DNA of 37,640 bases from positions 1 to 37,640 of IMG/VR virus record IMGVR_UViG_3300020045_007473. One strand, given 5' to 3'. Below are positions 3,713-30,804 of the stretch, one piece after another; the first letter of the stretch is position 1; every line of letters starts with the position of its first letter. The stretch comes from a virus. Lineage: Duplodnaviria; Caudoviricetes. The position numbers were made by a program, and so were the translations under genes. The notes under the pieces were generated by a model. The model had not been told where the DNA came from. It did no database searches and was given only the letters and a program-made list of their open reading frames with translations.

Positions 3713-3719
3713 CAGTTTA

Positions 3720-4274: not shown

Positions 4275-4280
4275 AAGCGA

Positions 4281-14992: not shown

Positions 14993-15235
14993 ATGGCACA
15001 AAACGAACTTCTTGACGCAAAGTTGCAAGATGCAAGATTATTAGCCTCATCCATGATTGGATATTTAGAAGGTATGGCAAAGAACAATGTTTGCATTAGT
15101 AGATATGCGAAGATGTGTATTTATAAGCATCTCATTGAACAAAACAAAAGGTATCCAATTACATGTTCTGATGAATGGATATTAGAATGGAAATTACAAC
15201 TAAAAAGACTGGAGGCTGAAGATGAAAGTATTTAA
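14993..15235 (+). CDS. hypothetical protein
   Basis: ORF with A-rich leader. Confidence 0.6.
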   Translation: MAQNELLDAKLQDARLLASSMIGYLEGMAKNNVCISRYAKMCIYKHLIEQNKRYPITCSDEWILEWKLQLKRLEAEDESI

Positions 15236-15353
15236 AGACAGGTATGGAAGGTTCATGCGAATCGTGTGGACTGGCATAAATTACATGAGGCTTCAGGATA
15301 ATCATGGAACAAATTACATAATCAAAATTTCTAAACTCCAAGACATATTATGA
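15222..15353 (+). CDS. 43-aa hypothetical protein (not in ORF track)
   Basis: MKVFKDRYGRFMRIVWTGINYMRLQDNHGTNYIIKISKLQDIL; ATGA overlap with the next gene. Confidence 0.55.
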   Translation: MKVFKDRYGRFMRIVWTGINYMRLQDNHGTNYIIKISKLQDIL

Positions 15354-15562
15354 ACTCGCACTTACATACTACTAATGAAGGTAGAGTAACAATCAAGACC
15401 GATCAAAAGACCATTGTCGGGAATGTTTACATGGACAATCACGGACATCTTTGGATGGCTGCTGATGAAGGGGAATTAGATTCACCGAAACCGCTTCCGC
15501 TTAACTTTCGTATTCCAGAATCGCTAATTGATATTTCAAAAAGTTATTTCAAAAACAAATAA
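15350..15562 (+). CDS. hypothetical protein
   Basis: Coupled ORF. Confidence 0.55.
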   Translation: MNSHLHTTNEGRVTIKTDQKTIVGNVYMDNHGHLWMAADEGELDSPKPLPLNFRIPESLIDISKSYFKNK

Positions 15563-15701
15563 TCATGCTCTACACGTATCAAGGGAAGTTCTACATGGGA
15601 ATAACCGAAATCACAGAACAGGAATATTTATCTTACATAAACCAAAAAAAAATAATTATCTTTATTCTAAACTTTAACATTAAATTAAATCTTATTTAAA
15701 A

Positions 15702-16550
15702 ATGGAAAATCAAAATCAAGTTGCGACCACAGCTAAAATGACAGGTCAGCCGAAAACAAAACTAATGATGAACCTAAGCAGTCCAGAGGATGTCATGGAG
15801 TTTTCGTTGCTGCTAAAAAAGTTTATTAAAGATAACAAGCTATCCACTGAAATACAGGGAAAGCAATATGTTCAAGTTGACGGATGGAAGTTCGCAGGAA
15901 TTAACTTTGGAATCATTCCTATTGTTGAGCAGCCAGTAAAAGACAAATCAGAAACGGTCAGCAATGTTTTTTATCAGAAGCGCAAAATAAAGAACTACAA
16001 AAATGAATGGATTGACAAAGACGTTCCAGTGCTGATTGCAGGTAAAGACGTTACGCACGCAATAAAGGAAGATCAGGAATGGACAAAGACCTACACCAAA
16101 GTGACGATCATGCCAGTGTATAAATATTCATGTGAATGTTCGCTTGTCAGAATGAGCGATGGTGTGAAGGTTGGTTACGGATCAGCGATATGTTCCAACA
16201 GTGAATTGTTGAAAATATCTTTTGACGAATACGCTGTTTCCAGTATGGCACAAACAAGGGCAATCAGTAAAGCATTCCGCAACTTACTTGGGTTCATTAT
16301 GCAGGCAGCAGGATTTGAAACTACACCTGCCGAAGAGATGGAAGAAAAGTATGCAAAGAAACCAGAAGAAAACACAGACGAACTAACTGACATTGAGTTC
16401 CAGTTAACATTGTTAAATACCGTTGAAGAACTTGGAAAGTATTTCGAACAGGAAAGTATGAAGAAACACAGGAGTGATCCAAAGGTTATCGCTTTATTCC
16501 ATGCAAGAAAAGTTCAGATTGTTAAACCAGTAAAAAAGGAAACAAAATGA
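15702..16550 (+). CDS. putative single-strand annealing protein (recombinase)
   Basis: YVQVDGW...SMAQTRAISKAFR...TTPAEEM; coupled to an exonuclease. Confidence 0.65.
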   Translation: MENQNQVATTAKMTGQPKTKLMMNLSSPEDVMEFSLLLKKFIKDNKLSTEIQGKQYVQVDGWKFAGINFGIIPIVEQPVKDKSETVSNVFYQKRKIKNYKNEWIDKDVPVLIAGKDVTHAIKEDQEWTKTYTKVTIMPVYKYSCECSLVRMSDGVKVGYGSAICSNSELLKISFDEYAVSSMAQTRAISKAFRNLLGFIMQAAGFETTPAEEMEEKYAKKPEENTDELTDIEFQLTLLNTVEELGKYFEQESMKKHRSDPKVIALFHARKVQIVKPVKKETK

Positions 16551-17389
16551 CTTACAAAGAAATGGCCGACCAGTTAACAGGAATAAAGATAACACCTGAA
16601 TTCTTAAAGACACGTCCGCTTTCATACAGTTCCTTAAAAGCGTTTAAGCGATCGCCATTACATTATCTACACTACCTGACATCAACAAAAGAAAAGACAC
16701 CTGCATTGATCTTTGGAGGGGTTGTGGATGTATTGATATTAACTCCTGATCAGTTTGAACTTAAATATGTAGTTGCGCCTGAAATTAAACGTACAACCAA
16801 AGAAGGTAAGATTCAATGGGATGAGTTAGTTAAGTTGGCAGGAGGCAAAGAAATTATCAGTCAGGAAATGTTTCAGTCTGCATGTAATATTCGGGATGCT
16901 GTAATGGAAAACAAAAAGTCAAGGGAAATTATTGATCAGGTTGGGACAGTTCAAAGAAAAATCAACTGGGATTCAGACGACCTTCCACATGTAATGTTCA
17001 GCGACATGGATAGCACTGAAGGGAATTTTATCTGCGATTTAAAAAGCGCAGCATCAGCCGAGCCTGAAGAGTTTCAGCGATCAGCATTTAACTTTGGCTA
17101 TCATATTCAGGCAGCTTTGTATCTGGAAGCATTCAGAAAGAAAATGTTTAGATTTCCTCGTTTTATTTTTATGGTTGTTGAGAAAGAACCTCCATATTCA
17201 GTAGCTGTATTTGATAAAATTTCAGAATCATTCTTTAAGTTAGGCATGCAGGAAATAGACACCCTTAGAACACAGTTTAAATATTGCATGGAGAATGATT
17301 TGTTCATGAAAAGCTACGATATAAACACAGTGGATGGAGGGCTTATACTTGATCTCCCAGGATATGCACGTCAGAAAATACAGGATTAA
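16547..17389 (+). CDS. PD-(D/E)XK exonuclease (DUF3799/RecE-like)
   Basis: LSYSSLK...SPLHY...ICDLKS...YHIQAALY...VVEKEPPY. Confidence 0.85.
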   Translation: MTYKEMADQLTGIKITPEFLKTRPLSYSSLKAFKRSPLHYLHYLTSTKEKTPALIFGGVVDVLILTPDQFELKYVVAPEIKRTTKEGKIQWDELVKLAGGKEIISQEMFQSACNIRDAVMENKKSREIIDQVGTVQRKINWDSDDLPHVMFSDMDSTEGNFICDLKSAASAEPEEFQRSAFNFGYHIQAALYLEAFRKKMFRFPRFIFMVVEKEPPYSVAVFDKISESFFKLGMQEIDTLRTQFKYCMENDLFMKSYDINTVDGGLILDLPGYARQKIQD

Positions 17390-17398
17390 ACCTATTTT

Positions 17399-17824
17399 AT
17401 GAAACAAGAATACATATCAACAGTGAAGGAAGGTAAACTTCAGATGAATGTATCTAAAATGATCGCTCATATTCTTTCTAAGTTTGAAGGAAAACGAGTA
17501 ATCATAACAATTGAGAAGCTATCCTCAAAAAGAAGTTCACAACAAAACAGGTTACTTCACATGCACATCGGAATCTTAGCAAAAGAGTTTGGATTTACAT
17601 TAGAGGAAATGAAATCAGCTTTGAAGACTAAGTTCCTAATAACTGATAAAGTATGTGAAAAAACAGGAGAGATAATGCAGTACATAAAAGATACTTCGGC
17701 ATTAAGTAAAGATGAGTTTTCAGAATTTATAGAAAGAGTAATTCAGTTTGGCGCAGAATACGGAGTAATACTTCCTTTGCCTGATGACTTGTTGGAAAAC
17801 GAACACGTGAGTGTTAATAAATAA
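17399..17824 (+). CDS. NinB-like recombination accessory protein
   Basis: KRSSQQNRLLH...TSALSKDEFSEFIERV...GVILPLP. Confidence 0.65.
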   Translation: MKQEYISTVKEGKLQMNVSKMIAHILSKFEGKRVIITIEKLSSKRSSQQNRLLHMHIGILAKEFGFTLEEMKSALKTKFLITDKVCEKTGEIMQYIKDTSALSKDEFSEFIERVIQFGAEYGVILPLPDDLLENEHVSVNK

Positions 17825-17827
17825 ATA

Positions 17828-17868
17828 TTTACATTGTGTAAAACTTAAATAAAAATATATTACATTTG
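17828..17868 (+). promoter_or_regulatory. operator copy 3 plus -7 promoter box
   Basis: TTTACA-TTG-TGTAAA at 17828-17842 and TACATTTG at 17861-17868. Confidence 0.6.
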
Positions 17869-17884
17869 ACAAAAATAAAAACCA

Positions 17885-18217
17885 ATGGCAAAATTTAGAA
17901 CAACTTTCGGAAAGGTAAAAGAACTACTCATGTCGGATATTAAATATCAGGACAGCGATGAGAAACTGGTTGTCAGAATATGGTATGACGAACTTGACGC
18001 GATGGGATACGACAGTAAAGTTATTACAACAGTAGAGTTCTTTCGTATCTACATCGCAGGTAAATTAACAACAGCGGACATCATCACGCGAGCGCGAAGA
18101 AAGTGCAATGAAGAATATCCGTTTACTCGAGGGAGGAGTTACAATGGAAGAATGAAAAATCAAAAAGAAATAATTTCACAGGTAAAAGAATTATCTAATA
18201 TAAACGGAAAGAATTAA
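17885..18217 (+). CDS. hypothetical protein
   Basis: 110-aa ORF with A-rich leader. Confidence 0.65.
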   Translation: MAKFRTTFGKVKELLMSDIKYQDSDEKLVVRIWYDELDAMGYDSKVITTVEFFRIYIAGKLTTADIITRARRKCNEEYPFTRGRSYNGRMKNQKEIISQVKELSNINGKN

Positions 18218-18220
18218 TAC

Positions 18221-18295
18221 GGGGAGGGGTCATGGTTTATTTTGCCAAAGGTTCTCCAAGATTAAATGAGTCGCCCGAACTCGCCCTCCCTTTTT
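18221..18295 (+). terminator. branched terminator or attenuator-like structure
   Basis: GGGAGGG (18222-28) pairs with CCCTCCC (18284-90), then T5; small internal hairpins. Confidence 0.45.
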
Positions 18296-18327
18296 AAATT
18301 TAACTTTAAATTAAAATTCAATTAGTA

Positions 18328-18975
18328 ATGGCAAAAGAACTCCCATACTTTCAATTTGAGCCTGCTCAATATCTTACAGGGGATATACAATTTTGTTCAC
18401 TGGCTGCGCAGGGACTTTTCGCAAATATTTGTTCTATGTACTGGCAGCGAGCCTGCGATTTAACCTTTGATCAGCTGAATAAAAAATACAAGGAACACAA
18501 AGATCTTCTGGACGAACTGGTTAAAAGTTATGTTCTTAAAAAAGATGGCGACAATGTACTGATCGAATTCTTAAATGAACAGTATAAAACAATCAGTGAA
18601 AGAAGGGATAAACATATTGAAGCAGGTCGCATCGGTGGATTGAAAAGTGCTCAAGCAAGAATGAAGCGTGGTCCAATCAAAGCATCACCTCCATTGATAA
18701 AAATAGAACCTGATTACCCATTCAAGACCGAGCGATTTAAAAAGCACTGGATTGAATATGTTTCACACAGGGCAAAGAAGCGCAGTAAGATCACAGAAGA
18801 ATCCGCTGCCAAGTTATTTAAGAAATTTAAAAAGTACACTGAAGATCAGGTCTGCGAAGCGATTACACTTTGCATAGAAAGCGGATGGACTGGAGTATTC
18901 CCGAAGCACGATGAAAAGAAAGTTTCCAAGATAATTCCAACAGACACTGAATATAAAATACCACAAAACAAATGA
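18328..18975 (+). CDS. replication initiator (DUF1376/YdaU-like N-terminus)
   Basis: ELPYFQFEPAQYL...AQGLF...YW...AGRIGG; C-terminal W..Y..HR...AI...IESGWTGVF; coupled to a helicase loader. Confidence 0.75.
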   Translation: MAKELPYFQFEPAQYLTGDIQFCSLAAQGLFANICSMYWQRACDLTFDQLNKKYKEHKDLLDELVKSYVLKKDGDNVLIEFLNEQYKTISERRDKHIEAGRIGGLKSAQARMKRGPIKASPPLIKIEPDYPFKTERFKKHWIEYVSHRAKKRSKITEESAAKLFKKFKKYTEDQVCEAITLCIESGWTGVFPKHDEKKVSKIIPTDTEYKIPQNK

Positions 18976-19715
18976 GTACTGTAATAGAGTTCGCAGAAGG
19001 CATGACGTTGAAGGCGAAATTCGTTTCATACGCGAAGTATTGCATCGAAGGTGGATACCAGTTCAGTTCCGATACTCGGACGCAGTTATCGGGCTTATTT
19101 CATTGCATAGAGAATACGAATCAGGGTGCTGTTGTTTACGGTAAAACAGGAACAGGCAAAACAATCTTGTTCCAGATGCTTGGCAGAATCATTCACCCGA
19201 AGGATCCACTGGCATTTAAGTTCAGAAATTCTCTGGACATCGTTTTAGATTTCAACATTACTGGTCACGAGATATTTAACAAAGACAATTCAGTGAACGT
19301 GTTAATTGACGATCTCGGAGCAGAGGATAAAGGTGTTCACTTTGGTGATCGCGTTGAAGTGTTTGAAAGATATATTCAAAAGCGATACGACCTATGGAAG
19401 TTGAACGGAGTGCGCACTTACTTCACTACGAACATGACTCCAGAAAAAATCACTGAACGATATGGAACAAGAGTATGGAGCAGACTTGAAGAAATGTGCC
19501 AACACTTTTTAATCAACGATTCAGACAAAAGGAATTTAAAAAACTTCAAGTCATTCCCAACGGTGCTGCATCGTAAAACAAAAGACGAACAGGAATGGGA
19601 CAGGCTTTATAAAGAGCACAAAGAGCAGGCAAAGTTGAAGGAATATAAACAACCCCCGACACTGGGCGAAAGATTAAAGAATCAATTCAAAGAATCATTT
19701 GGTGAATTTGAATAA
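18972..19715 (+). CDS. DnaC/IstB-like AAA+ ATPase (helicase loader)
   Basis: GKTGTGKT, LIDDLGAE, TTN, YGTRVWSRLEEM. Confidence 0.85.
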   Translation: MSTVIEFAEGMTLKAKFVSYAKYCIEGGYQFSSDTRTQLSGLFHCIENTNQGAVVYGKTGTGKTILFQMLGRIIHPKDPLAFKFRNSLDIVLDFNITGHEIFNKDNSVNVLIDDLGAEDKGVHFGDRVEVFERYIQKRYDLWKLNGVRTYFTTNMTPEKITERYGTRVWSRLEEMCQHFLINDSDKRNLKNFKSFPTVLHRKTKDEQEWDRLYKEHKEQAKLKEYKQPPTLGERLKNQFKESFGEFE

Positions 19716-19727
19716 AAAAATAACACC

Positions 19728-20012
19728 ATGACAAAACGAGCAAAGCAATGGAAGAATGTTCTTGAAACGTTTCATGGGGAAAGGCTAAGAGGTCGCGCGA
19801 GTGGAATATGTAGGACGATATTTTTAGTTGAGCGCATGTTAGATAAAGATTGCTTGCTTCTTATTGATGAACTTTTTTATACATTCAATAAAGATGCAGA
19901 TGAAGATATATGGATTTTCGGATTTCCATTTTCGGCAGACGAAATTAGAAGGGAAACGTCAGCAGACGAGCGTGAAACGGCAATATGTTTATTAATAGCG
20001 ATTAACTCTTAA
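19728..20012 (+). CDS. hypothetical protein
   Basis: ORF in accessory run. Confidence 0.55.
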   Translation: MTKRAKQWKNVLETFHGERLRGRASGICRTIFLVERMLDKDCLLLIDELFYTFNKDADEDIWIFGFPFSADEIRRETSADERETAICLLIAINS

Positions 20013-20023
20013 ACCAAAAACAA

Positions 20024-20290
20024 ATGACAAAGCTACCAACAGCGAAATCATTTATAATCGAAAAGGCTAAATCTAATCCTTTAATGAAAGGAATGGAAAC
20101 CAATATTGGACTATGCGAATTGCTTGATGAATATGCCAACTTAAAATCAGAATACTACGTAACCGAAGCCTTGAAAGCAGCAAGTGAGAGTGCTGTTATA
20201 TTTATGCCAACTCACGCTCATTTACATGGCTCTAAGAATGTTAGCAAAGATTCAATCCTCAACTCTTACCCACTAACTAATATAAAATGA
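20024..20290 (+). CDS. hypothetical protein
   Basis: LPTA...ALKAASE...KDSILNSYPLTNIK, a small-gene type I associate with Bacteroidota phages. Confidence 0.65.
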   Translation: MTKLPTAKSFIIEKAKSNPLMKGMETNIGLCELLDEYANLKSEYYVTEALKAASESAVIFMPTHAHLHGSKNVSKDSILNSYPLTNIK

Positions 20291-20448
20291 ATATGAAAGA
20301 ACCTGATATACTCGATAAAAAATATTCCTACTTTCACAAAAAGGCAGGAAAGAGATTTCTAAACAACCAGCTTTACGCGAAGGATGTAAAGAAATATAAT
20401 GAGTGGCTTGCATCTCAACCCAAAAGCGAACCTATTAAAACCAACTAA
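20287..20448 (+). CDS. 53-aa hypothetical protein (not in ORF track)
   Basis: ATGA overlap; MNMKEPDILDKKYSYF...; fills the gap. Confidence 0.55.
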   Translation: MNMKEPDILDKKYSYFHKKAGKRFLNNQLYAKDVKKYNEWLASQPKSEPIKTN

Positions 20449-20453
20449 CAACT

Positions 20454-20996
20454 ATGCAACTACACAAACTACCGCAGGGATTTATTGTTACAAGCGATGA
20501 ACCTATAAATAAAGGAGATTATTATTTTACAGATGGTGAAGTATTTATGAGAATGACTCAAAATGGTGCTATTTCATCGTATGCAATAAAAGTTACTTAC
20601 CAAGAACCCAACATCATACTCTCCTCTTTATCAGAAGCAGAACAGAATGTGATTGGATATTGGGATATAGAAGCATTCGCTCGTTCTTATTTAAAGGAGT
20701 GTCAAGATAAACTTTATGGCACAGGCACGCAGACCACTCACCCAATGTATAGGAACTCTTTAGATGTTCTTAATGGAGTTGTAAAAGGTGCGCACAAAAT
20801 GAATGAACTCCTATCTGATAGAATGTTTACTAAACAAGATATGGGAAAGGCTTATACAGAAGGGTGGCAAGATAGGGTATTTTCATCGGGGTATCAAAAA
20901 GATGTAGATGAATATCTCCAATCCCTCACTCCACAATCATGGAAGATAGAAGCTATTGAAGAAGATGGCAAAATTAAAGTTTTAAAATTGATATAG
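20454..20996 (+). CDS. hypothetical protein
   Basis: VTSDEPINKGDYY motif, 180 aa. Confidence 0.65.
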   Translation: MQLHKLPQGFIVTSDEPINKGDYYFTDGEVFMRMTQNGAISSYAIKVTYQEPNIILSSLSEAEQNVIGYWDIEAFARSYLKECQDKLYGTGTQTTHPMYRNSLDVLNGVVKGAHKMNELLSDRMFTKQDMGKAYTEGWQDRVFSSGYQKDVDEYLQSLTPQSWKIEAIEEDGKIKVLKLI

Positions 20997-20998
20997 TT

Positions 20999-21202
20999 AT
21001 GACAAATGAAATTTTCTCAGAAGAACAATTACAAAAAATAAAAGAAACGGAAAACTTCCTTAAAGAAGCATTTTGCATAGATGGCAAGTGTTCTTATATT
21101 GAAGATGTTAGAATAAATAGCGCCTTAAAAAATACAGTAGGTATGTTATATATTTTAAATGATACAAATCGTGGAATGTTCTTTGTAATAATAGGTAAAT
21201 AA
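20999..21202 (+). CDS. hypothetical protein
   Basis: Tightly packed ORF. Confidence 0.5.
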   Translation: MTNEIFSEEQLQKIKETENFLKEAFCIDGKCSYIEDVRINSALKNTVGMLYILNDTNRGMFFVIIGK

Positions 21203-21228
21203 AATAAAAGTGCTAAAATTATTGTAAG

Positions 21229-21435
21229 ATGGAAGTATTTAATGTAAAAGATAAATTGCCTAATGTAGAACATGGAAGTTATTTAGTGTATGCACCAAAG
21301 AATTTTCCCAAAAATAGTAGATGGTTAGTAGCTGAATATTATAATGATGTGAAAGGATTTTATAGTGAGTCCTCTGAGGAATTTTTAGATGATATTACGC
21401 ATTGGTGTGAGCTTCCTAATGATCCAAAATTATGA
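21229..21435 (+). CDS. DUF551-like protein
   Basis: VKDKLP...YLV...ITHWCELPNDP. Confidence 0.75.
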   Translation: MEVFNVKDKLPNVEHGSYLVYAPKNFPKNSRWLVAEYYNDVKGFYSESSEEFLDDITHWCELPNDPKL

Positions 21436-21659
21436 AAACAGAATTTTATTTAATTTATCTAATTGGTTTTCTGATAACGTATGGTATAATCGTTTGGAAA
21501 AACATTAAACCCCCTAACGGCAAATTAGGAATTTGGATGTGTTTTGTATGGCCAGTAGTATGGATTGCAGCAACTGCTGTATCTTTGTTTTTCTTCTTAG
21601 TATTATTTGAACCTAAATTTAAAAGAAAAAACCCTAAAAATAGAAAAGATGAAAGCTAA
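21432..21659 (+). CDS. small membrane protein
   Basis: Two hydrophobic segments, WP motif. Confidence 0.6.
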   Translation: MKTEFYLIYLIGFLITYGIIVWKNIKPPNGKLGIWMCFVWPVVWIAATAVSLFFFLVLFEPKFKRKNPKNRKDES

Positions 21660-21795
21660 AAAATTAAATCAAGATGACAGGGAAAAAATGTCTAACAGGC
21701 TTTGGAATAAGTTAGTAAAAGAACTGTCTAAGTTGAATGACAATAATTACACAGCAAGAAAGATATTTGAATATGTAGAAAGGCAAAGGCGTTAA
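21649..21795 (+). CDS. small hypothetical protein
   Basis: MKAKKLNQDDREKMSNRLW...; ATG start preferred over the upstream TTG. Confidence 0.5.
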   Translation: MKAKKLNQDDREKMSNRLWNKLVKELSKLNDNNYTARKIFEYVERQRR

Positions 21796-21805
21796 AACAG
21801 AGATA

Positions 21806-21958
21806 ATGAAAAAGAGGAAATTGATTGGCTCAAAAATATGCCCTACCTGTTGGAATAGTAGAAAGGTTACTATTTATGAAAATGGAGGATTTGAGTATAA
21901 GGGTAAGCCGTATAAAATAAAATGTCCTACTTGTAGTCCGATTAAACCAAAACACTAA
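21806..21958 (+). CDS. 50-aa zinc-ribbon protein (not in ORF track)
   Basis: MKKRKLIGSKICPTCWNSRK...KIKCPTCSPIKPKH, two CPTC motifs. Confidence 0.6.
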   Translation: MKKRKLIGSKICPTCWNSRKVTIYENGGFEYKGKPYKIKCPTCSPIKPKH

Positions 21959-22005
21959 AACTGATATAAGATGAACCTACTCGAAACATCAGACGAAAGA
22001 TTAAA

Positions 22006-22267
22006 GCATAACGGTTTCGGGCTAAGAGAAGTTTAAACCTTTTGTGCGGTGGGGTTACACTGCATTAACAATATAAATACAAAAAAGATGAAAGCAATGA
22101 CAAAAAATGAGTTCAGAGAATTTGCAAAAGTGCGTGGATTTGCGGTGGCATATTCAGGCAAGTTGAAAAAGTTTTTTATGCGTAAAGTTTCGCAAATGAA
22201 CGTGAATGAAATTATAAACTCTAAGTGCGTTGGCAAGGTTTAAATTTCTTCTTAGCCCGTGTTATAA
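22006..22267 (+). repeat. attC-like site 1 (262 bp, ORF in loop)
   Basis: GCATAAC; arms 22018-22041 and 22235-22259 pair over 24 bp with one bulge; GTTATAA. Confidence 0.75.
22088..22243 (+). CDS. 51-aa basic protein inside the loop of site 1
   Basis: A-rich leader then MKAMTKNEFREFAKVRGFAVAYSGK...; stop lies in the right arm. Confidence 0.55.
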   Translation: MKAMTKNEFREFAKVRGFAVAYSGKLKKFFMRKVSQMNVNEIINSKCVGKV

Positions 22268-22311
22268 GCTGATTGCATTGTGCGGTCGGCTTATAGCGGA
22301 GGGCAATTTGC

Positions 22312-22447
22312 TTATAACGTAATTGCTTGCCGAAGGGCAGGTAATAGAATTAATTAGTTCAATAGCAAATTAGAAAAAAGATGATAGATGTTACAAATGA
22401 TGCCAGCGGTTCCGTCAGCCTGCCTTTTGGCAAGCAAACTGTTGTAG
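22312..22447 (+). repeat. attC-like site 2 (136 bp)
   Basis: TTATAAC; arms 22323-22341 and 22419-22437 (19 bp); GTTGTAG. Confidence 0.8.
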
Positions 22448-23076
22448 GCAGTACGGTTATCCTGGGAGATTGTGTCGAAGTTATGAAAGGGTTTGAGGAC
22501 AATCAGTTTGACTTGGCAATCGTTGACCCTGAATATGGTATCAATGCGGCTTTAAAGACTTCATATCATGCCAATGCTTTGACTAATTACACAAAAAAAC
22601 ATTGGGATAAAAAGATACCCGATGAAACATATTTTGCAGAACTTTTTAGAGTAAGCAAACATCAAATAATTTGGGGTGGCAATTACTTCATTCCTTTTTT
22701 ACCTGCCACAAGGTGTTTTTTAGTATGGGATAAAGGCGAAGGTTTTTACAATAGAACTTATGCTGAATGTGAACTTGCTTGGACTTCATTTGATAAAAAC
22801 ACAAACAAGATAAAATTTGACCCATTGGCAAAAGGAAGCTATAAAGGCAAAATACACCCAACTCAAAAGCCTGTTGAATTGTATGACTACTGCTATTCAT
22901 TTGCTGGATTAGAAGAAGGTGCAAAAGTTTTAGATACAAATTTAGGGTCAGGCTCAAGCCGTATCAGTGCCAATAAAGCAAAGTTAAATTTTGTCGGTTG
23001 TGAGATTGACAAAGAATATTATGATAAACAAGAAAAAAGATATGCAAATTTCATTAGTCAGCTCCGTTTATGGTAG
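22381..23076 (+). CDS. DNA N6-adenine/N4-cytosine methyltransferase (beta class)
   Basis: GDC...FDLAIVDPEYG (DPPY variant)...HPTQKPVELY...VLDTNLGSGSS...GCEIDKEY. Confidence 0.9.
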   Translation: MIDVTNDASGSVSLPFGKQTVVGSTVILGDCVEVMKGFEDNQFDLAIVDPEYGINAALKTSYHANALTNYTKKHWDKKIPDETYFAELFRVSKHQIIWGGNYFIPFLPATRCFLVWDKGEGFYNRTYAECELAWTSFDKNTNKIKFDPLAKGSYKGKIHPTQKPVELYDYCYSFAGLEEGAKVLDTNLGSGSSRISANKAKLNFVGCEIDKEYYDKQEKRYANFISQLRLW

Positions 23077-23094
23077 GGTGTCTTTTGGAATTGC

Positions 23095-23227
23095 CTACAA
23101 CGTATCGGTGCTATACGGTGTGGCGGATTTTAATCACAAAAGTTTAATCCGAAGCACCAAAGTTGAATTTAAAATAAATGTTTAACCGAAGCACGTCAGC
23201 CGCCATATTGTATAGCACTTGTTAGCG
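23095..23227 (+). repeat. attC-like site 3 (133 bp)
   Basis: CTACAAC; arms 23108-23126 and 23200-23218 (19 bp); GTTAGCG. Confidence 0.8.
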
Positions 23228-23255
23228 GCTGCCCTTCTTCACAAATCGAAATAAA

Positions 23256-23483
23256 ATGACAGAAGAACAAATTAAAGAGCTTGGTTGGAAACTCGTTAAA
23301 CAATACAACCACGACCAATACTATACTAATCGCTACAAACTTGGATGTATGGAAATTGAGTTTACTTATGAGGGTAAAGAATTGCTTACTCACGATGTAA
23401 CGATTTCAGAATTGAACTGTATGCCAATTTCATTCAACCAAGCGAAACTGTTAACGGAACTTCTCGGACACTGGTCTGAATAG
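23256..23483 (+). CDS. hypothetical cassette protein
   Basis: MTEEQIKELGW...; fills cassette C and the stop abuts the cassette end. Confidence 0.7.
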   Translation: MTEEQIKELGWKLVKQYNHDQYYTNRYKLGCMEIEFTYEGKELLTHDVTISELNCMPISFNQAKLLTELLGHWSE

Positions 23484-23489
23484 GGTTGC

Positions 23490-23587
23490 CGCTAACGGGC
23501 GAATGCTTGTTTAGTTTGGCCGCTTTGAAATGCCGACCTGTCCACGGAGAACCGAACCGGCCAAATTGAACAAGCATGGTGTTATGA
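23490..23587 (+). repeat. attC-like site 4 (98 bp)
   Basis: CGCTAAC; arms 23503-23522 and 23558-23577 (20 bp); GTTATGA. Confidence 0.8.
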
Positions 23588-23617
23588 ACAGTTGCCGACT
23601 TTACAGATACAGAACCT

Positions 23618-24772
23618 ATGAAACACGAACAGAGTATTAATAATTTTTTTATGAGCGATGGCAAAAAGGCCGATAGGCCAAAACACCTTTTCCCCTACAG
23701 ATGGACGTTGAAAGATGCAGTATTTACCAAAGACAAAGGAACTGTATTTTCTTGTTTTGCTTGTGGTGGTGGTTCAACTATGGGCTATAAGCTGGCCGGG
23801 TTTGATGTAATCGGCTGCAATGAGATTGACCCTAAAATGATTCAAGCCTACAAAACCAACCATAACCCAAAATTTGCCTATCTGGAGCCAATACAGACCT
23901 TTAAACTGAGGCAAGATTTACCGGAGGAATTGTATAGCCTGGATATTTTGGATGGTTCACCGCCTTGCAGTAGCTTCTCAATGGCCGGAAACCGGGAATC
24001 TGATTGGGGCAAAGAAAAGGTTTTCCGGGAAGGGCAGGCCGAACAGGTTTTGGATACCTTGTTTTTTGACTTCATAGACCTTGCCAAAAAATTGCAGCCC
24101 AAAGTTGTGATAGCTGAAAATGTGAAAGGCTTAATGTTAGGTGAAGCAAAACAATATGTTCGTAAAATTTACACTGCTTTTCAGGATGCTGGCTATCAAT
24201 TAAGAATAACACCTTACTTGTTGGATGCTTCAAAAATGGGTGTACCTCAAAAACGGGAAAGGGTTTTCTTTGTGGCTCTAAGAAATGATTTAGCCGGGCA
24301 ATTCATGGAACAAATAGATATGTTTCAATCAGCTCCTAAATTGGATTTGAATTTTGATGAACCTGAAATTTCCTTTGAGGAAGCTACTAAAGACTTCTGG
24401 GATTTAGATTTTCAAAAAAATAGTATCGAGAAATATGCAGTTGGCAAAGAATGGTTAACATTAAAAGAAGGGGAACAATCAGAAAAATATTTCCAACTTA
24501 TAAGACTAGATAGAAATAAGGTTTGCCCTACAATTGTAGCGAGTTCCCAAAATAGTAGTACGGCAAGTATTACCCACCCGTTTTTATGTAGGAAACTTAA
24601 TAATAACGAATTTTGTAGTTTAGGAACTTACCCACAAGATTATAATTTTAAAGATAATTTGGCTGGTTATTTAATTGGAATGTCTGTTCCACCTTTGATG
24701 ACTGCCCAGATAGCTACACAAGTTTACCAACAATGGCTTTGCTGCATTAAAGGGGAGGAAAAAAATTATTAA
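23618..24772 (+). CDS. DNA cytosine-5 methyltransferase
   Basis: FACGGG, GSPPCSSFS, ENVKG, PQKRERVFF, GMSVPP motifs. Confidence 0.95.
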   Translation: MKHEQSINNFFMSDGKKADRPKHLFPYRWTLKDAVFTKDKGTVFSCFACGGGSTMGYKLAGFDVIGCNEIDPKMIQAYKTNHNPKFAYLEPIQTFKLRQDLPEELYSLDILDGSPPCSSFSMAGNRESDWGKEKVFREGQAEQVLDTLFFDFIDLAKKLQPKVVIAENVKGLMLGEAKQYVRKIYTAFQDAGYQLRITPYLLDASKMGVPQKRERVFFVALRNDLAGQFMEQIDMFQSAPKLDLNFDEPEISFEEATKDFWDLDFQKNSIEKYAVGKEWLTLKEGEQSEKYFQLIRLDRNKVCPTIVASSQNSSTASITHPFLCRKLNNNEFCSLGTYPQDYNFKDNLAGYLIGMSVPPLMTAQIATQVYQQWLCCIKGEEKNY

Positions 24773-24871
24773 TACGGTGATGACCTACGCCCTGTCCTAC
24801 GAAGAACGCACTAAGGCAATTGTTCATAACTACTAAATTACTGCAAGTTTTGTTATATCTTTAAAATTAAT

Positions 24872-24884
24872 TATCAATACATTA
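24872..24884 (+). promoter_or_regulatory. IHF-consensus-like site
   Basis: TATCAATACATTA matches WATCAANNNNTTR, about 40 bp after the array end. Confidence 0.4.
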
Positions 24885-24891
24885 CCTATAA

Positions 24892-25104
24892 ATGACCATT
24901 GAAATTTACACCTTCAAAACAACCAACGAAATCTATTCAGATATGAATGGTAATTTTTACAGGATGTCCGATGATTTACCGCTTCCAAAAGTTTATCAGA
25001 ACGGAAGGATAGCAATCAGGGATAAAAATAAGTTTTACGGAATAAAGAGATTGAGATTAAGCGCAATAAAGTCAAACAAAGAATTAAAAGATTGCCCATT
25101 TTAA
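24892..25104 (+). CDS. hypothetical protein
   Basis: ORF ending in DCPF. Confidence 0.55.
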   Translation: MTIEIYTFKTTNEIYSDMNGNFYRMSDDLPLPKVYQNGRIAIRDKNKFYGIKRLRLSAIKSNKELKDCPF

Positions 25105-25105
25105 A

Positions 25106-25321
25106 ATGATCAAGCTACAAAAGAATACTGGCAACGGAGGGGCGAAATTAAAATATCCGATCAACACACTTTACAAAGTTGGAAACAGTTTTGAAGTGCG
25201 ATGCGCAAAAGCAAGATTAAAAACAACCGTCACCAGTTGGATGCTTCGTCATAGTAAAGATTGGATAGTTGAATTTGAATCACTGCCGAACGGCAAAACA
25301 AAAGTCACACGAATAAAATGA
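25106..25321 (+). CDS. hypothetical small DNA-binding-like protein
   Basis: KYP...VGNSFEV...VTRIK. Confidence 0.6.
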   Translation: MIKLQKNTGNGGAKLKYPINTLYKVGNSFEVRCAKARLKTTVTSWMLRHSKDWIVEFESLPNGKTKVTRIK

Positions 25322-25932
25322 TTAAGCCAGTCAAAGAAAAGAAGTGCAGGTGGTGTCCTAAGAAATTCATTCCAAGAAATTCACTTCAGGTAGTTTGTTC
25401 TTACAGGTGCGCACTGAAGCATCAAAATAAAATGATCAAAGAAAATGAACAAAAGGAAAGGCAGCGATTTGAAGGAATAAAATTGTACGTTGAAAAGAAA
25501 GCGGAAGTAGAAGCGAAACTTCAGGCGATCATAAATAAAATAGCGAGATTACTGGACAAGCAGTGGACAGATTCTCATTGTATAAGTTGTTTTCGTTATC
25601 CAAGCAAACCACAGGGAGGTCACTTCTATACGGTTCAGGCATTTCCAGCACTGCGCTATCATCTTTGGAATGTTCATCTTCAATGTTACAAATGTAATTG
25701 CAAGATGGGAAGCAACAGAGTCGGATACGAGGAAGGAATTATTTATTTTTATGGAAATAAAAAACTATCTTACATCAAGCAAACTCTACCAAGAACATAT
25801 CCAGAACTCCGCAAATCAAAAGAGGAACTAAGGGAATACATTTTAACAGCGAGAGAATGCTTAAAGAAAGTTGAGAACTATGAAATCACAACACGTGACG
25901 CAGTAAATAAATTTATTGGAATCTATAAATAA
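25318..25932 (+). CDS. ninG: NinG/Rap-like junction endonuclease
   Basis: KKCRWC..KF.P..SLQVVCS..CA; CISC...GGHFY...LRY...NVHLQCYKCN. Confidence 0.8.
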   Translation: MIKPVKEKKCRWCPKKFIPRNSLQVVCSYRCALKHQNKMIKENEQKERQRFEGIKLYVEKKAEVEAKLQAIINKIARLLDKQWTDSHCISCFRYPSKPQGGHFYTVQAFPALRYHLWNVHLQCYKCNCKMGSNRVGYEEGIIYFYGNKKLSYIKQTLPRTYPELRKSKEELREYILTARECLKKVENYEITTRDAVNKFIGIYK

Positions 25933-26008
25933 ACTTAACATGGAAGAAGGCGCAGAAGTCGTTCCAAAAGTATTTAGTGAAATACATAAATCATATTCAA
26001 AAAAAGAT

Positions 26009-26016
26009 TAATTTTG
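26009..26016 (+). promoter_or_regulatory. -7 promoter box
   Basis: TAATTTTG just before ATG 26024. Confidence 0.45.
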
Positions 26017-26023
26017 TAATCCT

Positions 26024-26236
26024 ATGGTAGATGGATCAAACTACATTATTCCCTTCGGTCAGCACAAAGGTAAAGCAATTGGAACTGTCCCTGCTGGATA
26101 CCTGCTATTCCTTTACGACAACTGCGAATGGTTCAGAGGACTATCCAGAACCTATGTTGAAGAAAACTTGGAACAGCTAAGAATCGAAGCAAAAGAACAA
26201 TCTAAGAAACGCAAAACAAGTAATTCAAGCCAGTAG
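26024..26236 (+). CDS. DUF3820/QSregVF-like small protein
   Basis: IPFGQHKGKAIGTVPAGYLLFL. Confidence 0.75.
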   Translation: MVDGSNYIIPFGQHKGKAIGTVPAGYLLFLYDNCEWFRGLSRTYVEENLEQLRIEAKEQSKKRKTSNSSQ

Positions 26237-26321
26237 TCATCAGGCTTCAAATAAAGCGATTTAAAGCAGCCAAATAGAAGATCAATGGCAAAGTAAAGGG
26301 AAACAGTTAAAACAGCGCAGA

Positions 26322-26621
26322 ATGAAGAAAATCATCATCATGTTATTATTCGCTTCAAGCATCGCTTCAACAAGTGCTCAAGCATCGCTTGAAACAAAAG
26401 AACGGTTCTGTGAAGTAACCTGCAAGCAAAACGGATTAACCCAAAAGGTGACAGCAACTATTGACTCAGGGCAAACAACAATCAACTCCAAACAGGTATT
26501 CGAAAGTAACGTCCAAGTTCTAAACTTCATGTCCAATAACGGATGGCAGTTCGTTACCTGTTATTCAACAACTGGTGGAGGTGGATATGTGATTTGGTAT
26601 TTATTTAAAAAACGGGATTGA
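26322..26621 (+). CDS. secreted small protein (DUF4177-like)
   Basis: Signal peptide; VLNFMSNNGWQFV...YLFKK. Confidence 0.65.
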   Translation: MKKIIIMLLFASSIASTSAQASLETKERFCEVTCKQNGLTQKVTATIDSGQTTINSKQVFESNVQVLNFMSNNGWQFVTCYSTTGGGGYVIWYLFKKRD

Positions 26622-26622
26622 A

Positions 26623-26883
26623 ATGCAATACAGAATCATTCGAAGAATTTACAACAATGGAATTATAAAGTATCTTCCAGTAATGGTACTTTTCGATCAG
26701 CCGTTCCATGAATCAATTAGCAATGAAAATATGGGAGGTGGATGTATAATGAATAAATGGCTTGACAGTATGAACGAATGTATAGAAGTTATCAGAAATC
26801 ATGCTTCATCTTTCCCTGAAGAAAGTACATCTAATCCATTTACAGTAGAAGATATTGATACCAAAGGAATAGAATTCGAATAA
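26623..26883 (+). CDS. hypothetical protein
   Basis: MQYRII...Y.P pattern. Confidence 0.55.
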   Translation: MQYRIIRRIYNNGIIKYLPVMVLFDQPFHESISNENMGGGCIMNKWLDSMNECIEVIRNHASSFPEESTSNPFTVEDIDTKGIEFE

Positions 26884-26893
26884 AAAAAATGTT

Positions 26894-26901
26894 TACTTTT
26901 G
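26894..26901 (+). promoter_or_regulatory. -7 promoter box upstream of the terminase operon
   Basis: TACTTTTG. Confidence 0.5.
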
Positions 26902-26952
26902 TAATAAATAATGAACTTGAAAATCTAAAGTAGTTATTTTTAGATACTTAAC

Positions 26953-27249
26953 ATGCCAGCAGGAAAACCAAAAGGATACCCAAAAGCAGGTGGTCGTCAA
27001 AAGGGTGTACCAAATAAAAAGACCGAAGCAGTTCGCACTCGTATTAAATGGGTATTATCTTTATTAGAGCCAACACTTAAAGAGGACATTGCAAAGTTAA
27101 GTCCAACAGATCGCGTTCGAACTTGGGTAGTATTGCAAGAGTATGAACATCCAAAACTCCAACGGCAAACCATAGTTGATGACGAAGGCAAATCAGTATC
27201 AATCGTAAAACTTTATCTACCTGACAATAAGCGCGACAACCAAAAGTGA
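26953..27249 (+). CDS. terS: terminase small subunit
   Basis: GGRQKGVPNKKT motif; overlaps the terL start. Confidence 0.7.
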   Translation: MPAGKPKGYPKAGGRQKGVPNKKTEAVRTRIKWVLSLLEPTLKEDIAKLSPTDRVRTWVVLQEYEHPKLQRQTIVDDEGKSVSIVKLYLPDNKRDNQK

Positions 27250-28733
27250 CAGACATCTATCCGCAGCAGGGATTCCAGACAGACTTCCTTTCCAGTGAAG
27301 CGGACATCGTCATCGGAGGTGGAGCAGCAGGTGTCGGCAAAACTTTCGCACTGCTTTTAGAACCTGCAAGACACATTGAAAACAATCCAAAGTTCGGAGG
27401 TGTATTTTTTCGCAGAACATATCCACAGATAACAAATGAAGGTGCGTTATGGGACACCTCGGCTGAACTTTACTTTCATCTTAAAGGCAAGATGAATGAG
27501 AATAACTTGGAATGGATATTCCCCTCTGGAGCCAGTATTAAATTCAGTCACTTACAGCACGAAAAAAATATCTATGATTTTCAGGGAGCGCAGATTCCAT
27601 TCATAGCATTTGATGAACTAACACACTTTACAGAAAAGATGTTCTTTTATTTGTTGAGCCGTAACCGTTCAACCTGTGGAGTAAAACCGTACGTCCGAGC
27701 AACCTGTAATCCTGATCCTGACAGTTGGGTTGCACGTTTCATTGAATGGTGGATAAATCAAGACACTGGCTTCCCTATTTTAGAGCGATCTGGCGTCATA
27801 AGATACTTTATTCGGGATGCAGGTGTCATTGTATGGGGCGACAGCGTAAAAGAAGTCCTAAGCAAAGTTCCGCACGTACTGGAAAGTCTACCAAAAGAAT
27901 ACCGAGAGGATGAAACAGAACTTGGACATTTAGTGAAATCCGTTACGTTCATAGCAGGGAATATCTACGACAATAAAAAGTTGATGGATAAAGATCCAGA
28001 GTACATTGGAAACCTGTTGGCTCAAGACGATGCCACAAAACAACAACTCCTTTTTGGAAACTGGAAAGTAAAGCCTGACACAACTTCACTCATAGAATAT
28101 CCTGCGATACTGGATTCTTTCAGTAACGAACACGTTCCAGAAGGCAAGCGATACATCACTGCTGATATAGCTTTACATGGTTCGGATATGTTTGTCATCT
28201 TCGTGTGGAGTGGATTACGTGTGATTGATGTAGCTGTAATGAGCAAATCAAACGGAGCGCAGGTGGAGCAGCGATTAAAGGAACTGGCAAAAGTATATTC
28301 CGTTCCACAGAGTCAAATCGTTTACGATGCTGATGGTGTAGGTGGATTCTTAAAAGGATATCTGATGAATGCCGTTTCGTTTAACAATGGAGCAGCGTCT
28401 ATTCAGGTGGTCGGGAATAAACAGAACTACAAGAACCTTAAGACGCAGTGCTACTATCTACTCGCTGATGTTATTAACAAAGCTAATATCTTTATTTCGC
28501 CAAAAGTTGCAAATGAAAAAGTAAATGCTAAATTTATCCGCGACCAGTTAATCAGTGAAAGCATGGTTATTAAGAAATATAAATCCGATGAAGATGGTAA
28601 GTTACGCATCATTCCAAAGGAGCAGATGAAGAACATGCTCGGACATTCACCTGATTACATGGATGCAATGATGATGCGTATGTATTTTGAAATAAGACAA
28701 AGAGTATTCACACCTCCAAAAGTTTACGTTTAA
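27246..28733 (+). CDS. terL: terminase large subunit
   Basis: GGGAAGVGKT Walker A, IAFDELTHF Walker B, ATCNP, TADIA..GSD and SPDYMDA nuclease motifs. Confidence 0.95.
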   Translation: MTDIYPQQGFQTDFLSSEADIVIGGGAAGVGKTFALLLEPARHIENNPKFGGVFFRRTYPQITNEGALWDTSAELYFHLKGKMNENNLEWIFPSGASIKFSHLQHEKNIYDFQGAQIPFIAFDELTHFTEKMFFYLLSRNRSTCGVKPYVRATCNPDPDSWVARFIEWWINQDTGFPILERSGVIRYFIRDAGVIVWGDSVKEVLSKVPHVLESLPKEYREDETELGHLVKSVTFIAGNIYDNKKLMDKDPEYIGNLLAQDDATKQQLLFGNWKVKPDTTSLIEYPAILDSFSNEHVPEGKRYITADIALHGSDMFVIFVWSGLRVIDVAVMSKSNGAQVEQRLKELAKVYSVPQSQIVYDADGVGGFLKGYLMNAVSFNNGAASIQVVGNKQNYKNLKTQCYYLLADVINKANIFISPKVANEKVNAKFIRDQLISESMVIKKYKSDEDGKLRIIPKEQMKNMLGHSPDYMDAMMMRMYFEIRQRVFTPPKVYV

Positions 28734-28734
28734 C

Positions 28735-29421
28735 ATGGTTCACATTAAGATTGACGATTCAGATAACACGTACAAGTTTCCAACCAGTTGGTACGAAGTT
28801 ACCGTTCATCAGTTTTTGCAACTGCGCAAAAAGGATACACGTGATTTCATTGAACTGGTTTCGATACTTAGTGGAATCAGTTATGAAAAACTCTTCGTCT
28901 GTCAGCAAACCGATCTTGATGAAAAGTTATTCCCTTTCATGCAATGGTTACATGAACCGTTAACTGAAAAACAGTTAAGCAGAGTAAAACATATTTCATT
29001 CGGAACAAAGCAGTATCCAGTTCCTGATGGTAAAGTTCCATTCACATTCGGACAGAAGATTTCTTTACAAAATAAGTTGATAGAATCAAAAGAAAAGGAA
29101 GGCTCAACATTGGATTGTCTTGCATTTGCTGTTGCTGTTTACTTTCAACCGATCGTGACTGGTGAAAAGTTCAGCACAGAAGCAGCCGAGAAATTTGCAG
29201 TTGAGCAGGTGTTGCAATGCAGTATCACTGAAGCGTGGGGAGTCGCTGATTTTTTTTTGAAGAAATCAAGCGCATCATTGCACGTGACACAAAATATCTT
29301 TCAGCCAGACCAGATAAAATGGAATTGGCTGCGCAGGTTGACCGCTTGGATAAATTCAAAGAGTTCGCTACGATTGACACACTCGCAGGAGGCGATCCAC
29401 TTAAATATGAACAGATATTAG
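28735..29421 (+). CDS. tail assembly chaperone (short, gpG-like form)
   Basis: FPTSWYEVTVHQF...; T9 slippery run at ADFFL. Confidence 0.65.
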   Translation: MVHIKIDDSDNTYKFPTSWYEVTVHQFLQLRKKDTRDFIELVSILSGISYEKLFVCQQTDLDEKLFPFMQWLHEPLTEKQLSRVKHISFGTKQYPVPDGKVPFTFGQKISLQNKLIESKEKEGSTLDCLAFAVAVYFQPIVTGEKFSTEAAEKFAVEQVLQCSITEAWGVADFFLKKSSASLHVTQNIFQPDQIKWNWLRRLTAWINSKSSLRLTHSQEAIHLNMNRY

Positions 29422-29528
29422 AAATGGAATACGTCACAGTCTTTACAAAGTTATGGTTAGAAAAGGAACGGAATGATTTCAGAAAACGTTATGCAGAAGT
29501 ATTAAAGAAAACAAAAGGACATCAATAA
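29250..29528 (+). CDS. -1 frameshift extension of the tail chaperone (gpGT-like)
   Basis: The -1 frame from T9 (29250-29258) reads FFEEIKRIIARDTKYLSARPDKMELAAQVDRLDKF...TIDTLAGGDPLKYEQIL. Confidence 0.7.
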   Translation, partial: FFFEEIKRIIARDTKYLSARPDKMELAAQVDRLDKFKEFATIDTLAGGDPLKYEQILEMEYVTVFTKLWLEKERNDFRKRYAEVLKKTKGHQ

Positions 29529-29541
29529 AACATCCTAAAGA

Positions 29542-30804
29542 ATGAAGCATCCTGAAGAAATATGTGAGGAACTGGTTCTGCTGCTTGATGCGGATACGTT
29601 TACTTTTTACTATGGCTCACGTCCTGATCAGAACTTCGAAGCAGACGAGTTCACATATCCAGCAGTGTTTCTTGACAAACCGATTAAAGCAACAATCAGG
29701 AATACGATATCCAATGCACGATATGCGACAGTGAACATGGTGTTGTTCTTTGCTTACAAAGTAGAGATAGACGCTACTGAACCAGAGAAGTTCGCGCAGG
29801 CAAAACAGACAGCATGGACAGCAGCAAGGGAATTCGTATTGAGATTGCGCAGGTACGATGATTATATTACCGATGTAAAAGCGGAAACACTTACAGATGT
29901 TGATCATGTGTTCGATATAAATCTTGCAGGCTGTTTATTGGAAGTGACTGTTGAAATAAAAGACGTTGATCCAACGTGTATAGACGCTGTTGTTGTTTCA
30001 CCTCCAGTTGAAGTAAGCCCTCCAGATGTTACCCCTCCAGTGGAATACGATGCAGATGCGCAGGCTTACTTTGATGCACTGCCAGAACCGATCAGTGATG
30101 CACGAAAAGAAATCATCAACGACATGGTTCTTGATTTGAAGGCAACAGGGAATTGGGATGAATTGGAACAGTTGGCAATCTTAGCAAATGAAAACGAAGA
30201 TAATGCGCTTATTGATTTAATGCTTCCTTCGCGTTCAATGATTAATGTAAACACAGCAACATTCGTTGTGGACGAAGGATTTTATTCAGGTGGAATAAAC
30301 GGATATATTGATTGGAATCTTCCTGTTAATACAATGACTAAGTTGACAACGAACAGTTCATGTATTTTTGTTTACAATAGATTAGAACCTGCATCATCAT
30401 CTTATTTTGAATTTGGTGCAAGGGATTCTGGTTACGCAACAGTAATTTATTTAGCTTCTAAATACTTTGACGGAACAGTGTATGCTGAAAATAATTGTAT
30501 TAATGTTGGAAATTCAGGAAATTATGTTGAGGCGCTAAGATTTCATGCGTCACGAAGGGATTCATCAACACATCAAGAATACTGGCATGATGATACTTTG
30601 ATTTATACCGTATCACGTGCATCGTCAGGACGTCCGCCTGTTTCATTGCATACGAACGGATTAAACGGAAACGGAGTTCACGAGTCATCAAATTTTGCTA
30701 CTCAAAACTATTCGATCATAGGTTGCGGAAGCGGAAATGTTGATGTGGCTGCGCTTTACAACACCATACAAACATACATGACAGCAATCGGAAAACAAGT
30801 ATAA
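29542..30804 (+). CDS. tail terminator-like domain fused via a (V[S/T]PP)3 linker to a lectin/LamG-like module
   Basis: N-terminal ~150 aa YPAVFLD...AREFVLRL...AGCLLEV; C-terminal YDADAQAYF...LKATGNWDEL module. Confidence 0.55.
   Translation: MKHPEEICEELVLLLDADTFTFYYGSRPDQNFEADEFTYPAVFLDKPIKATIRNTISNARYATVNMVLFFAYKVEIDATEPEKFAQAKQTAWTAAREFVLRLRRYDDYITDVKAETLTDVDHVFDINLAGCLLEVTVEIKDVDPTCIDAVVVSPPVEVSPPDVTPPVEYDADAQAYFDALPEPISDARKEIINDMVLDLKATGNWDELEQLAILANENEDNALIDLMLPSRSMINVNTATFVVDEGFYSGGINGYIDWNLPVNTMTKLTTNSSCIFVYNRLEPASSSYFEFGARDSGYATVIYLASKYFDGTVYAENNCINVGNSGNYVEALRFHASRRDSSTHQEYWHDDTLIYTVSRASSGRPPVSLHTNGLNGNGVHESSNFATQNYSIIGCGSGNVDVAALYNTIQTYMTAIGKQV

Follow-up and report, generated by a model that had tools for sequence, protein, structure and literature searches.

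We suggest that a phage contig, the 37,640-nt virus record IMGVR_UViG_3300020045_007473 (Duplodnaviria; Caudoviricetes), carries an array of four hairpin-led modules which probably belong to an integron-like system of Bacteroidota, served by an Xer-like recombinase and with its docking site at the right-hand end. The record, hereafter the window, was analysed over its whole length; it is linear and 88% complete according to CheckV. The features of the array are as follows.

22010..22263, + strand: hairpin site 1, 254 nt, with a long loop containing a gene (pattern scan; related sites L402-L405 hold other nested genes)
22088..22243, + strand: open reading frame (ORF) of 51 amino acids (aa) in the loop of site 1, stop codon within the 3' arm, no PHROG match
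22012..22317, + strand: unit 1, 306 bp, site 1 plus a 58-nt tail without gene, tail ends complementary (borders inferred from units 2 and 3)
22316..22443, + strand: hairpin site 2, with the first ATG of the methyltransferase frame in its loop
22381..23076, + strand: N6/N4 DNA methyltransferase gene (PF01555)
22318..23100, + strand: unit 2, 783 bp, site 2 plus the N6/N4 methyltransferase (by comparison with L001/L002)
23099..23223, + strand: hairpin site 3 (15 distinct relatives on metagenome contigs)
23256..23483, + strand: 75-aa ORF, no family match including PHROG; a near-identical ORF in L304
23101..23495, + strand: unit 3, 395 bp, site 3 plus the 75-aa ORF (by comparison with L304)
23494..23583, + strand: hairpin site 4, 90 nt
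23618..24772, + strand: C5-cytosine DNA methyltransferase gene (PF00145)
23634..23650 (+) and 24759..24775 (-): arms of a perfect 17-nt inverted repeat around the C5 methyltransferase gene
23496..24829, + strand: unit 4, 1334 bp, site 4 plus the C5 methyltransferase (borders inferred from units 2 and 3)
24819..24846, + strand: likely docking (attI-like) site, consisting of the cassette end, AAC 24828-24830, a 7-nt spacer and a right arm at 24838-24846

All four hairpin sites of the original prediction, with AAC/GTT ends and a GCTW/WAGC core, were recovered on the + strand as the sole hits of a pattern scan of the 37.6 kb (the prediction had drawn them with ~4 nt of flank), and a second, strand-neutral scanner returned the same four and no others. 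In 200 dinucleotide-shuffled sequences the mean number of hits was 0.01; two of them had a single hit and none had two. The asymmetric spacers (6-8 versus 4-5 nt) and mostly bulge-free stems were likewise confirmed: the distances to the core are 8/4, 6/5, 8/4 and 8/5 nt in sites 1-4, and 13-17 of 20 positions per site form Watson-Crick pairs (16-19/20 counting G.T), without gaps across 20 nt in sites 2-4 and with one bulge in site 1. The YAAC...GTTR ends are present, the extended RYYY consensus of integrons (RYYYAAC/GTTRRRY) is kept loosely, and the two or three extrahelical bases of the attC type in the stem near L'' are absent.

Each cassette start is complementary to its own end, as had been predicted. 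For the four units this amounts to 10, 11, 10 and 11 of 12 positions (14, 12, 13 and 15 of 16); of 3755 other GTTR/YAAC pairs in the window, 0.37% attain 10/12 and not one attains 11/12. The array is therefore real, with hairpins and chained complementarity far above chance. Neither the leftmost AAC (upstream) nor the GTT at 24852 (downstream) has a partner with at least 10/12 complementarity, so the array ends there on the left and on the right. Hairpins lying between co-directional genes could also be fixed, non-recombining RNA or DNA elements (terminators, processing sites or repeats resembling miniature inverted-repeat transposable elements), an objection that the original prediction had raised against itself. 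There is no excess of intrinsic terminators, however (4 found versus 3.3 expected, none coinciding with the long stem of any site), a reading frame passes through an arm of site 2, and an Rfam search of positions 15000-30000 (E ≤ 5) returned one chance match (rli61, E 1.2) and nothing relevant. As fixed elements would also leave unexplained the chained complementarity and the borders that relatives place exactly at AAC, and are contradicted by those of L001 and L304 (see below), we find this explanation scarcely credible.

A crossover at either hairpin end would produce the same end complementarity, and relatives of the units were therefore used to decide polarity. Locus L001 shares hairpin 2 and the methyltransferase with the window, and the similarity begins at TATAAC (22313-22318) of site 2; at the right border of unit 2, similarity to both L001 and L002 stops at AAC(G) of site 3. 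Unit 3 recurs nearly unchanged in L304, from AAC 23099 to AAC(G) 23497, with other neighbours on both sides. A site-3 pattern scan of metagenome data (10/64 parts) gave 119 loci, 24 of them with AAC in place and 16 distinct with both arms, of which 15 were true relatives (L371 was dropped as false). In all 15 the hairpin is retained together with most of the post-GTT leader, but the sequence preceding AAC varies, and this single platform of hairpin and leader carries about 12 unrelated ORFs. The complement of a relative's own GTT was found at the unit end in 8 of the 9 relatives with enough sequence, the other six ending at contig ends. Across 17 near-identical hairpin pairs, mean identity was 4.6/12 before AAC against 10.2/12 after GTT and was higher downstream in 16/17. 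Chain complementarity was seen in 64/96 adjacent site pairs, as against a within-site mean of 6.4/12.

As these sequence comparisons show, the hairpin moves together with the gene behind it, and unit borders lie at the opening AAC. Since the relatives' borders fall there, a unit consists of an upstream hairpin plus a gene, with the docking end at the right of the array. Mobile hairpin-bounded units exchanged at AAC/GTT had thus been correctly predicted, as matches to L001 and L304 run from AAC to AAC among different neighbours. The proposed crossover at G|TT of the + strand, with gene plus downstream hairpin as the unit, is contradicted by the relatives of units 2 and 3, which border at the opening AAC; related phages had been expected to differ at GTT/AAC, and their units do border at an AAC triplet, but at the hairpin's opening AAC and not at its closing GTT.

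The same anatomy would be seen in a frozen relic, with units placed by a recombinase in an ancestor and nothing but homologous or illegitimate recombination between similar hairpins acting now, via the exonuclease VIII-, NinB- and NinG-like genes. A relic differs from a mobile array in present activity alone, and the contig does hold general recombination genes and no recombinase. However, the borders against L304 and L001 lie at a 3-6-nt core without flanking homology, none of the four outer boxes is damaged, nor is the docking arm, and long arrays persist undamaged in complete phages that lack the recombinase (L168). We consider a relic possible but doubtful.

The docking-like end of the array had been overlooked in the original prediction; after 24819-24846 there is neither a hairpin nor a recombinase gene. 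The array of L001 terminates with a lone AAC; a same-strand gene for a 294-aa tyrosine recombinase follows within 60 nt, and close relatives of this region keep the bases to the right of the lone AAC and differ to the left. In 17 loci the docking AAC is followed, after 38-62 nt, by a recombinase of one dedicated lineage; from these loci, 11 distinct arms, chosen by eye, were used to build a matrix of 9 bases starting 8 nt after AAC. Under this matrix, the window AAC at 24828-24830 ranks first of 936 window AACs, only at spacer 7, while the four hairpin AACs rank 133-862; the array end of L168 also fits (11.3). Positions 24819-24846 are thus a likely docking site, like that of the 17 recombinase loci a functional analogue of attI, but unlike it in sequence. 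GC-rich cassettes without genes, with long internal hairpins of their own, recur near the docking end (L001:1203-1500, and upstream of the recombinase in L184 and L202).

To address which strand folds, 70 distinct chained sites were taken from 26 loci and given the orientation of their genes. The coding-strand 5' arm has 1-5 extra nt, lying between AAC and the stem, in 67/70 sites and none extra in one; two L127 sites of reversed asymmetry proved to be a wrong strand call by the ORF rule and not true exceptions. Over the 70 sites, G.T pairs number 124 versus 43 A.C, the sites having been detected without regard to wobbles, and folding is better for the coding strand in 60/70. In classical attC, the scissile AAC lies in R' of the bottom strand (PMC5027507). 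As the border here is at the 5' AAC of the coding strand, the coding strand would take the role of the bottom strand. The G.T bias, the folding energy and the cleavage polarity of tyrosine recombinases together make the coding strand the likely folded, recombining strand.

The structure-specific recombinase that the original prediction placed behind the array has a counterpart, in so far as a tyrosine recombinase accompanies such sites in related phages and bacteria; it is not IntI. Nothing among the findings, which include no test for an HUH enzyme, requires one. This enzyme is ~290 aa long, with R131, K160, H224, R227, H250 and Y259 invariant among 75 relatives. The distance from K to HxxRH is 64-66 residues in this enzyme and 64-68 over the phage and host enzymes together, versus 106-108 in IntI; the I2-bearing IntI insertion (~42 residues) is absent, and the alignment to IntI4 falls into two pieces around a gap. 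It scores 143.7 bits with TIGR02249 (cut-off 265) and stays below all Xer cut-offs as well (NF040815 197/220, XerD 151/330, XerC 150/335); its best models are NF040815 and archaeal XerA structures, and its N-terminal domain matches PF13495. A quick tree of 46 proteins unites the 16 phage-type enzymes in a 99% clade separate from the IntI clade (100%), with unsupported deeper branching. With the strict scanner, hairpin sites on the gene's strand were found upstream of the recombinase in 11/42 loci and downstream in none, and 0/10 loci of enzymes at 26-29% identity had such sites. A single-protein search of genome contigs for the recombinase gave no matches, while an alignment-based search succeeded.

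The properties of this enzyme bear on the most familiar explanation, a classical integron fragment (cluster of attC sites lacking integron-integrase, CALIN), in which genes with ordinary attC sites behind them are mobilised by an IntI of the host. Hallmarks of attC include AAC/GTT cores as well as chained complementarity (PMC5027507), and CALINs with methyltransferases have been reported in phages: the 17 phage CALINs of Qi 2023 (PMC9892861) include one in Polaribacter phage P12002L with two methyltransferases, and PH101_attC2, which also has GCTA/TAGC, is recombined by IntI1 (PMC9892861). Against this, the genes of the array are opposite in orientation relative to the scissile arm, the stems are largely ungapped, and the enzyme next to such sites has no IntI insertion and falls short of the TIGR02249 cut-off. 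Furthermore, P12002L_attC1, which shares the architecture of the window sites and whose bottom strand, as defined by the authors, is the coding strand, was the one site among six from phages that IntI1 failed to recombine (PMC9892861), a single same-class site. P12002L (L400, NC_028924.1) has two arrays, ending at 29239 and 37265, whose terminal copies share 68 nt to the right of AAC and 1 nt to the left, and its 'attC2' coincides with such a lone-AAC terminus. A CALIN in the ordinary sense is in our opinion improbable.

Alternatively, the host's housekeeping XerC and XerD might act on the folded sites, as with CTXphi-type elements, which would suit phages that keep arrays without an enzyme of their own. 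The arms of the sites may resemble dif. XerCD are also described as recombining folded single-stranded substrates (PMC5027507, PMC4792948). Against this stand the dedicated recombinase behind the docking AAC of the 17 loci and the related enzymes that flank same-class sites in bacterial genomes, and we judge a role of XerC/XerD very improbable. The system does resemble XerA/XerC/XerD and the integrative mobile elements exploiting Xer (IMEX; CTXphi) in having a short tyrosine recombinase without I2 and, plausibly, a folded single-strand substrate, but its enzyme falls below every Xer cut-off and its arrays hold many cassettes with diverse sites instead of a single dif.

A search of the window with the cassette recombinase profile came back empty, and none of 56 scanned ORFs hit a tyrosine recombinase family, so that the absence of an integrase nearby, as originally predicted, extends to the whole contig; ORF 25106, considered as a recombinase remnant, was rejected (best E 0.28). 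The complete phages G456 (L168) and P12002L also have arrays while the recombinase is absent from their genomes (positive controls were run). The array of the 83.9-kb G456 (L168:1342-7840) is long and of the same class, with several methyltransferases and a well-fitting docking end. Host relatives of the enzyme (E ≤ 1e-62), without the insertion and mostly of 350-430 aa, are found in 100/251 genomes of a Ferruginibacter family sample and 105/201 of a Winogradskyella family sample, and same-class sites were seen in 14/18 hand-chosen, non-random host regions extended to about 16 kb. The recombinase may plausibly be supplied to the window phage in trans. In these 16-kb host regions, 10/11 site-flanked long ORFs have the classical orientation (L483 being the exception, and L471 excluded as mixed). 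Two host layouts recur, one with the array upstream and its genes on the opposite strand (L474, L478, L479) and one with the array downstream and a lone GTT after the stop codon (L466, L476, L477); in L467, three sites of ~185 nt are separated by short spacers without genes, and L483 has one inverted gene.

With integrons, the phage arrays share hairpin sites with AAC/GTT cores, exchange at AAC of one strand's 5' arm, cassette end complementarity, a docking site without hairpin immediately 5' of a tyrosine recombinase gene and the PF13495 N-terminal domain. Unlike in integrons, the likely recombining strand is the coding one, the hairpin comes ahead of its gene, and transcription reaches the docking site last; the ~42-residue insertion is missing from the recombinase; bases left unpaired are in the spacer and not in stem bulges, genes can sit inside the loop, and the site supplies the gene leader. 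As the system is integron-like yet fails on cassette polarity, stem bulges and the IntI insertion, we do not file it as an integron. The phage CALINs of Qi 2023 are likewise integrase-less arrays with DNA methyltransferases in a Bacteroidota phage, but there, in the accessible part of the paper, the sites are filed as ordinary attC, with polarity, docking end and separate recombinase unrecognised. Integrons count as rare both in phages (21 of 10,705 in the same study) and in Bacteroidota, for which IntegronFinder 2.0 names one complete integron, in Salinibacter (PMC9024848). We found no description of this site class, its polarity or its enzyme in full-text literature, including the accessible parts of PMC9024848, PMC8618304 and 10.1101/2024.07.02.601686, subscription journals not being covered.

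We propose that an Xer-like tyrosine recombinase, likely from the host or another phage, takes the coding strand in its folded form and cuts it at AA|C, and that modules are added or removed at the docking site at the right end of the array. The 1-5 unpaired bases of the 5' arm would take over the strand-marking role of the extrahelical bases of attC, and excised units would re-form a better-paired outer box (10-11/12 versus 6-8/12 in the array). Resolution might be replicative, as in integrons; new units would enter at the transcriptionally last position and be read from upstream phage promoters, and the two methyltransferases may shield the phage from host restriction.

Several observations weigh against this proposal. 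The ~12% of the phage missing from the window could encode an enzyme of its own. No close relative of the window phage was found (68% identity for the best hit of a terminase search, zero matches in a NinG search), so gain or loss at the window locus itself is without a comparison and no empty-site comparison was possible. Recombination, circles and empty sites were not observed; sequencing-run data consisted of one run with a small matching share, no RNA run being among those listed, and gave only fragments of other genomes and no usable junction. The alignments put the border in the AAC triplet without fixing the cut position inside it, and L357, one of the 9 complete site-3 relatives, has no complementary end. 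Whole-site folding z-scores are modest by themselves (-1.75, -0.99 and -2.92 on the + strand for sites 2-4). The link between enzyme and sites is adjacency alone, the upstream sites of the strict scanner being confined to 11 of the 42 recombinase loci, and sites were present in just 13/59 host loci with 1.5-kb flanks. The 11 arms of the docking matrix were hand-picked, one scoring -2.0 when left out, and the array ends of P12002L (-4.7) and L309 (-2.8) misfit the matrix. A docking-like arm follows the host gene in 8/56 loci versus 60/1180 random windows (opposite strand 1/56), an enrichment that is a modest signal. Finally, P12002L_attC1 is one site, and 'attC2' of the same phage was recombined by IntI1 on one strand (PMC9892861).

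The 51-aa ORF in the loop of site 1 had been overlooked in the original prediction. Relatives of site 1 carry different ORFs in the loop (L402/L403, L404, L405), followed by 53- or 108-nt tails or a second gene, the gene-less tails of 53 nt and 108 nt being those of L404 and L405; another relative, L401, has a short loop. Counterparts of the inner repeat of unit 4, 18-20 nt long, occur in 8 related cassettes, with flanks that resemble hairpin-loop sequence. An excised unit may form a dumbbell with two loadable loops. Nested inverted repeats of ~60 nt resembling the site-3 loop flank the C5-methyltransferase cassettes of L107, L123, L127, L128, L135, L142, L158 and L164. A GWGCGNDGG motif lies directly inwards of the long stems in site 1 and in the inner repeat of unit 4 (22044, 22225, 23653); three of its six window occurrences fall within the array, similar words stand beside stems in L401, L402 and L168, and it is possibly a gene-capture signal.

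Cassette-like settings were counted for 27/80 C5 and 6/80 N6/N4 methyltransferase homologues (random control 24/358), but ~11 of the counted C5 rows are visibly false, and the count supports only the statement that most homologues lie outside cassettes. A blastn search of the array against 50,697 annotated phages matched 77 records, with the C5 methyltransferase gene alone among the 40 matches listed; site 3 by itself gave zero matches, and the exact site-3 pattern was found 0 times in viral contigs.

The phage nature of the contig is seen from its terminase, portal, head protease, NinB and NinG; exonuclease VIII-like, O-like and DnaC-like proteins are encoded as well. Named relatives of the terminase are few and mostly from Bacteroidota (Carboxylicivirga, Prolixibacteraceae, Flavicella), with one Deltaproteobacteria and one Cloacimonetes label, and in blastn the C5 methyltransferase matches phages of Flavobacterium, Cellulophaga and Bacteroides; judging from these matches, the host is likely a member of the Bacteroidota. 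Four glycosyltransferase genes and one methyltransferase gene at 595-4934, directly before the head genes, possibly serve virion or DNA glycosylation, or host surface conversion. A 22-codon ORF (21971-22039) runs from a start ahead of site 1 into the 5' arm of that site, where it stops, and an imperfect inverted repeat of 24 nt with a 2-nt loop (26349-26398, within ORF 26322-26621) has no AAC/GTT ends.

On balance we lean, by a little, towards the broader view that there is a second integron system, so far unrecognised and shared by Bacteroidota with their phages, in which an I2-less tyrosine recombinase acts on folded single strands, the phage cassettes being gene-flipped relative to those of the hosts, either dumbbell loop being loadable, and the host enzyme being borrowed to collect methyltransferases. 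An Xer-like ancestor of integrons has been speculated on (PMC4792948), and such a system, if real, would be either a living version of it or an independent invention. As its sites and enzyme lie outside the standard models, a common gene-shuffling system would have been missed, and part of phage mosaicism would be explained by a site-specific route. The need of the I2 insertion for folded-strand recombination and the packaging of genes into cassettes would become testable, and the making of cassettes could be approached through one platform that serves a dozen unrelated genes. The window offers a compact set for this purpose, with four natural sites, a likely docking site and two units whose borders are exactly mapped.

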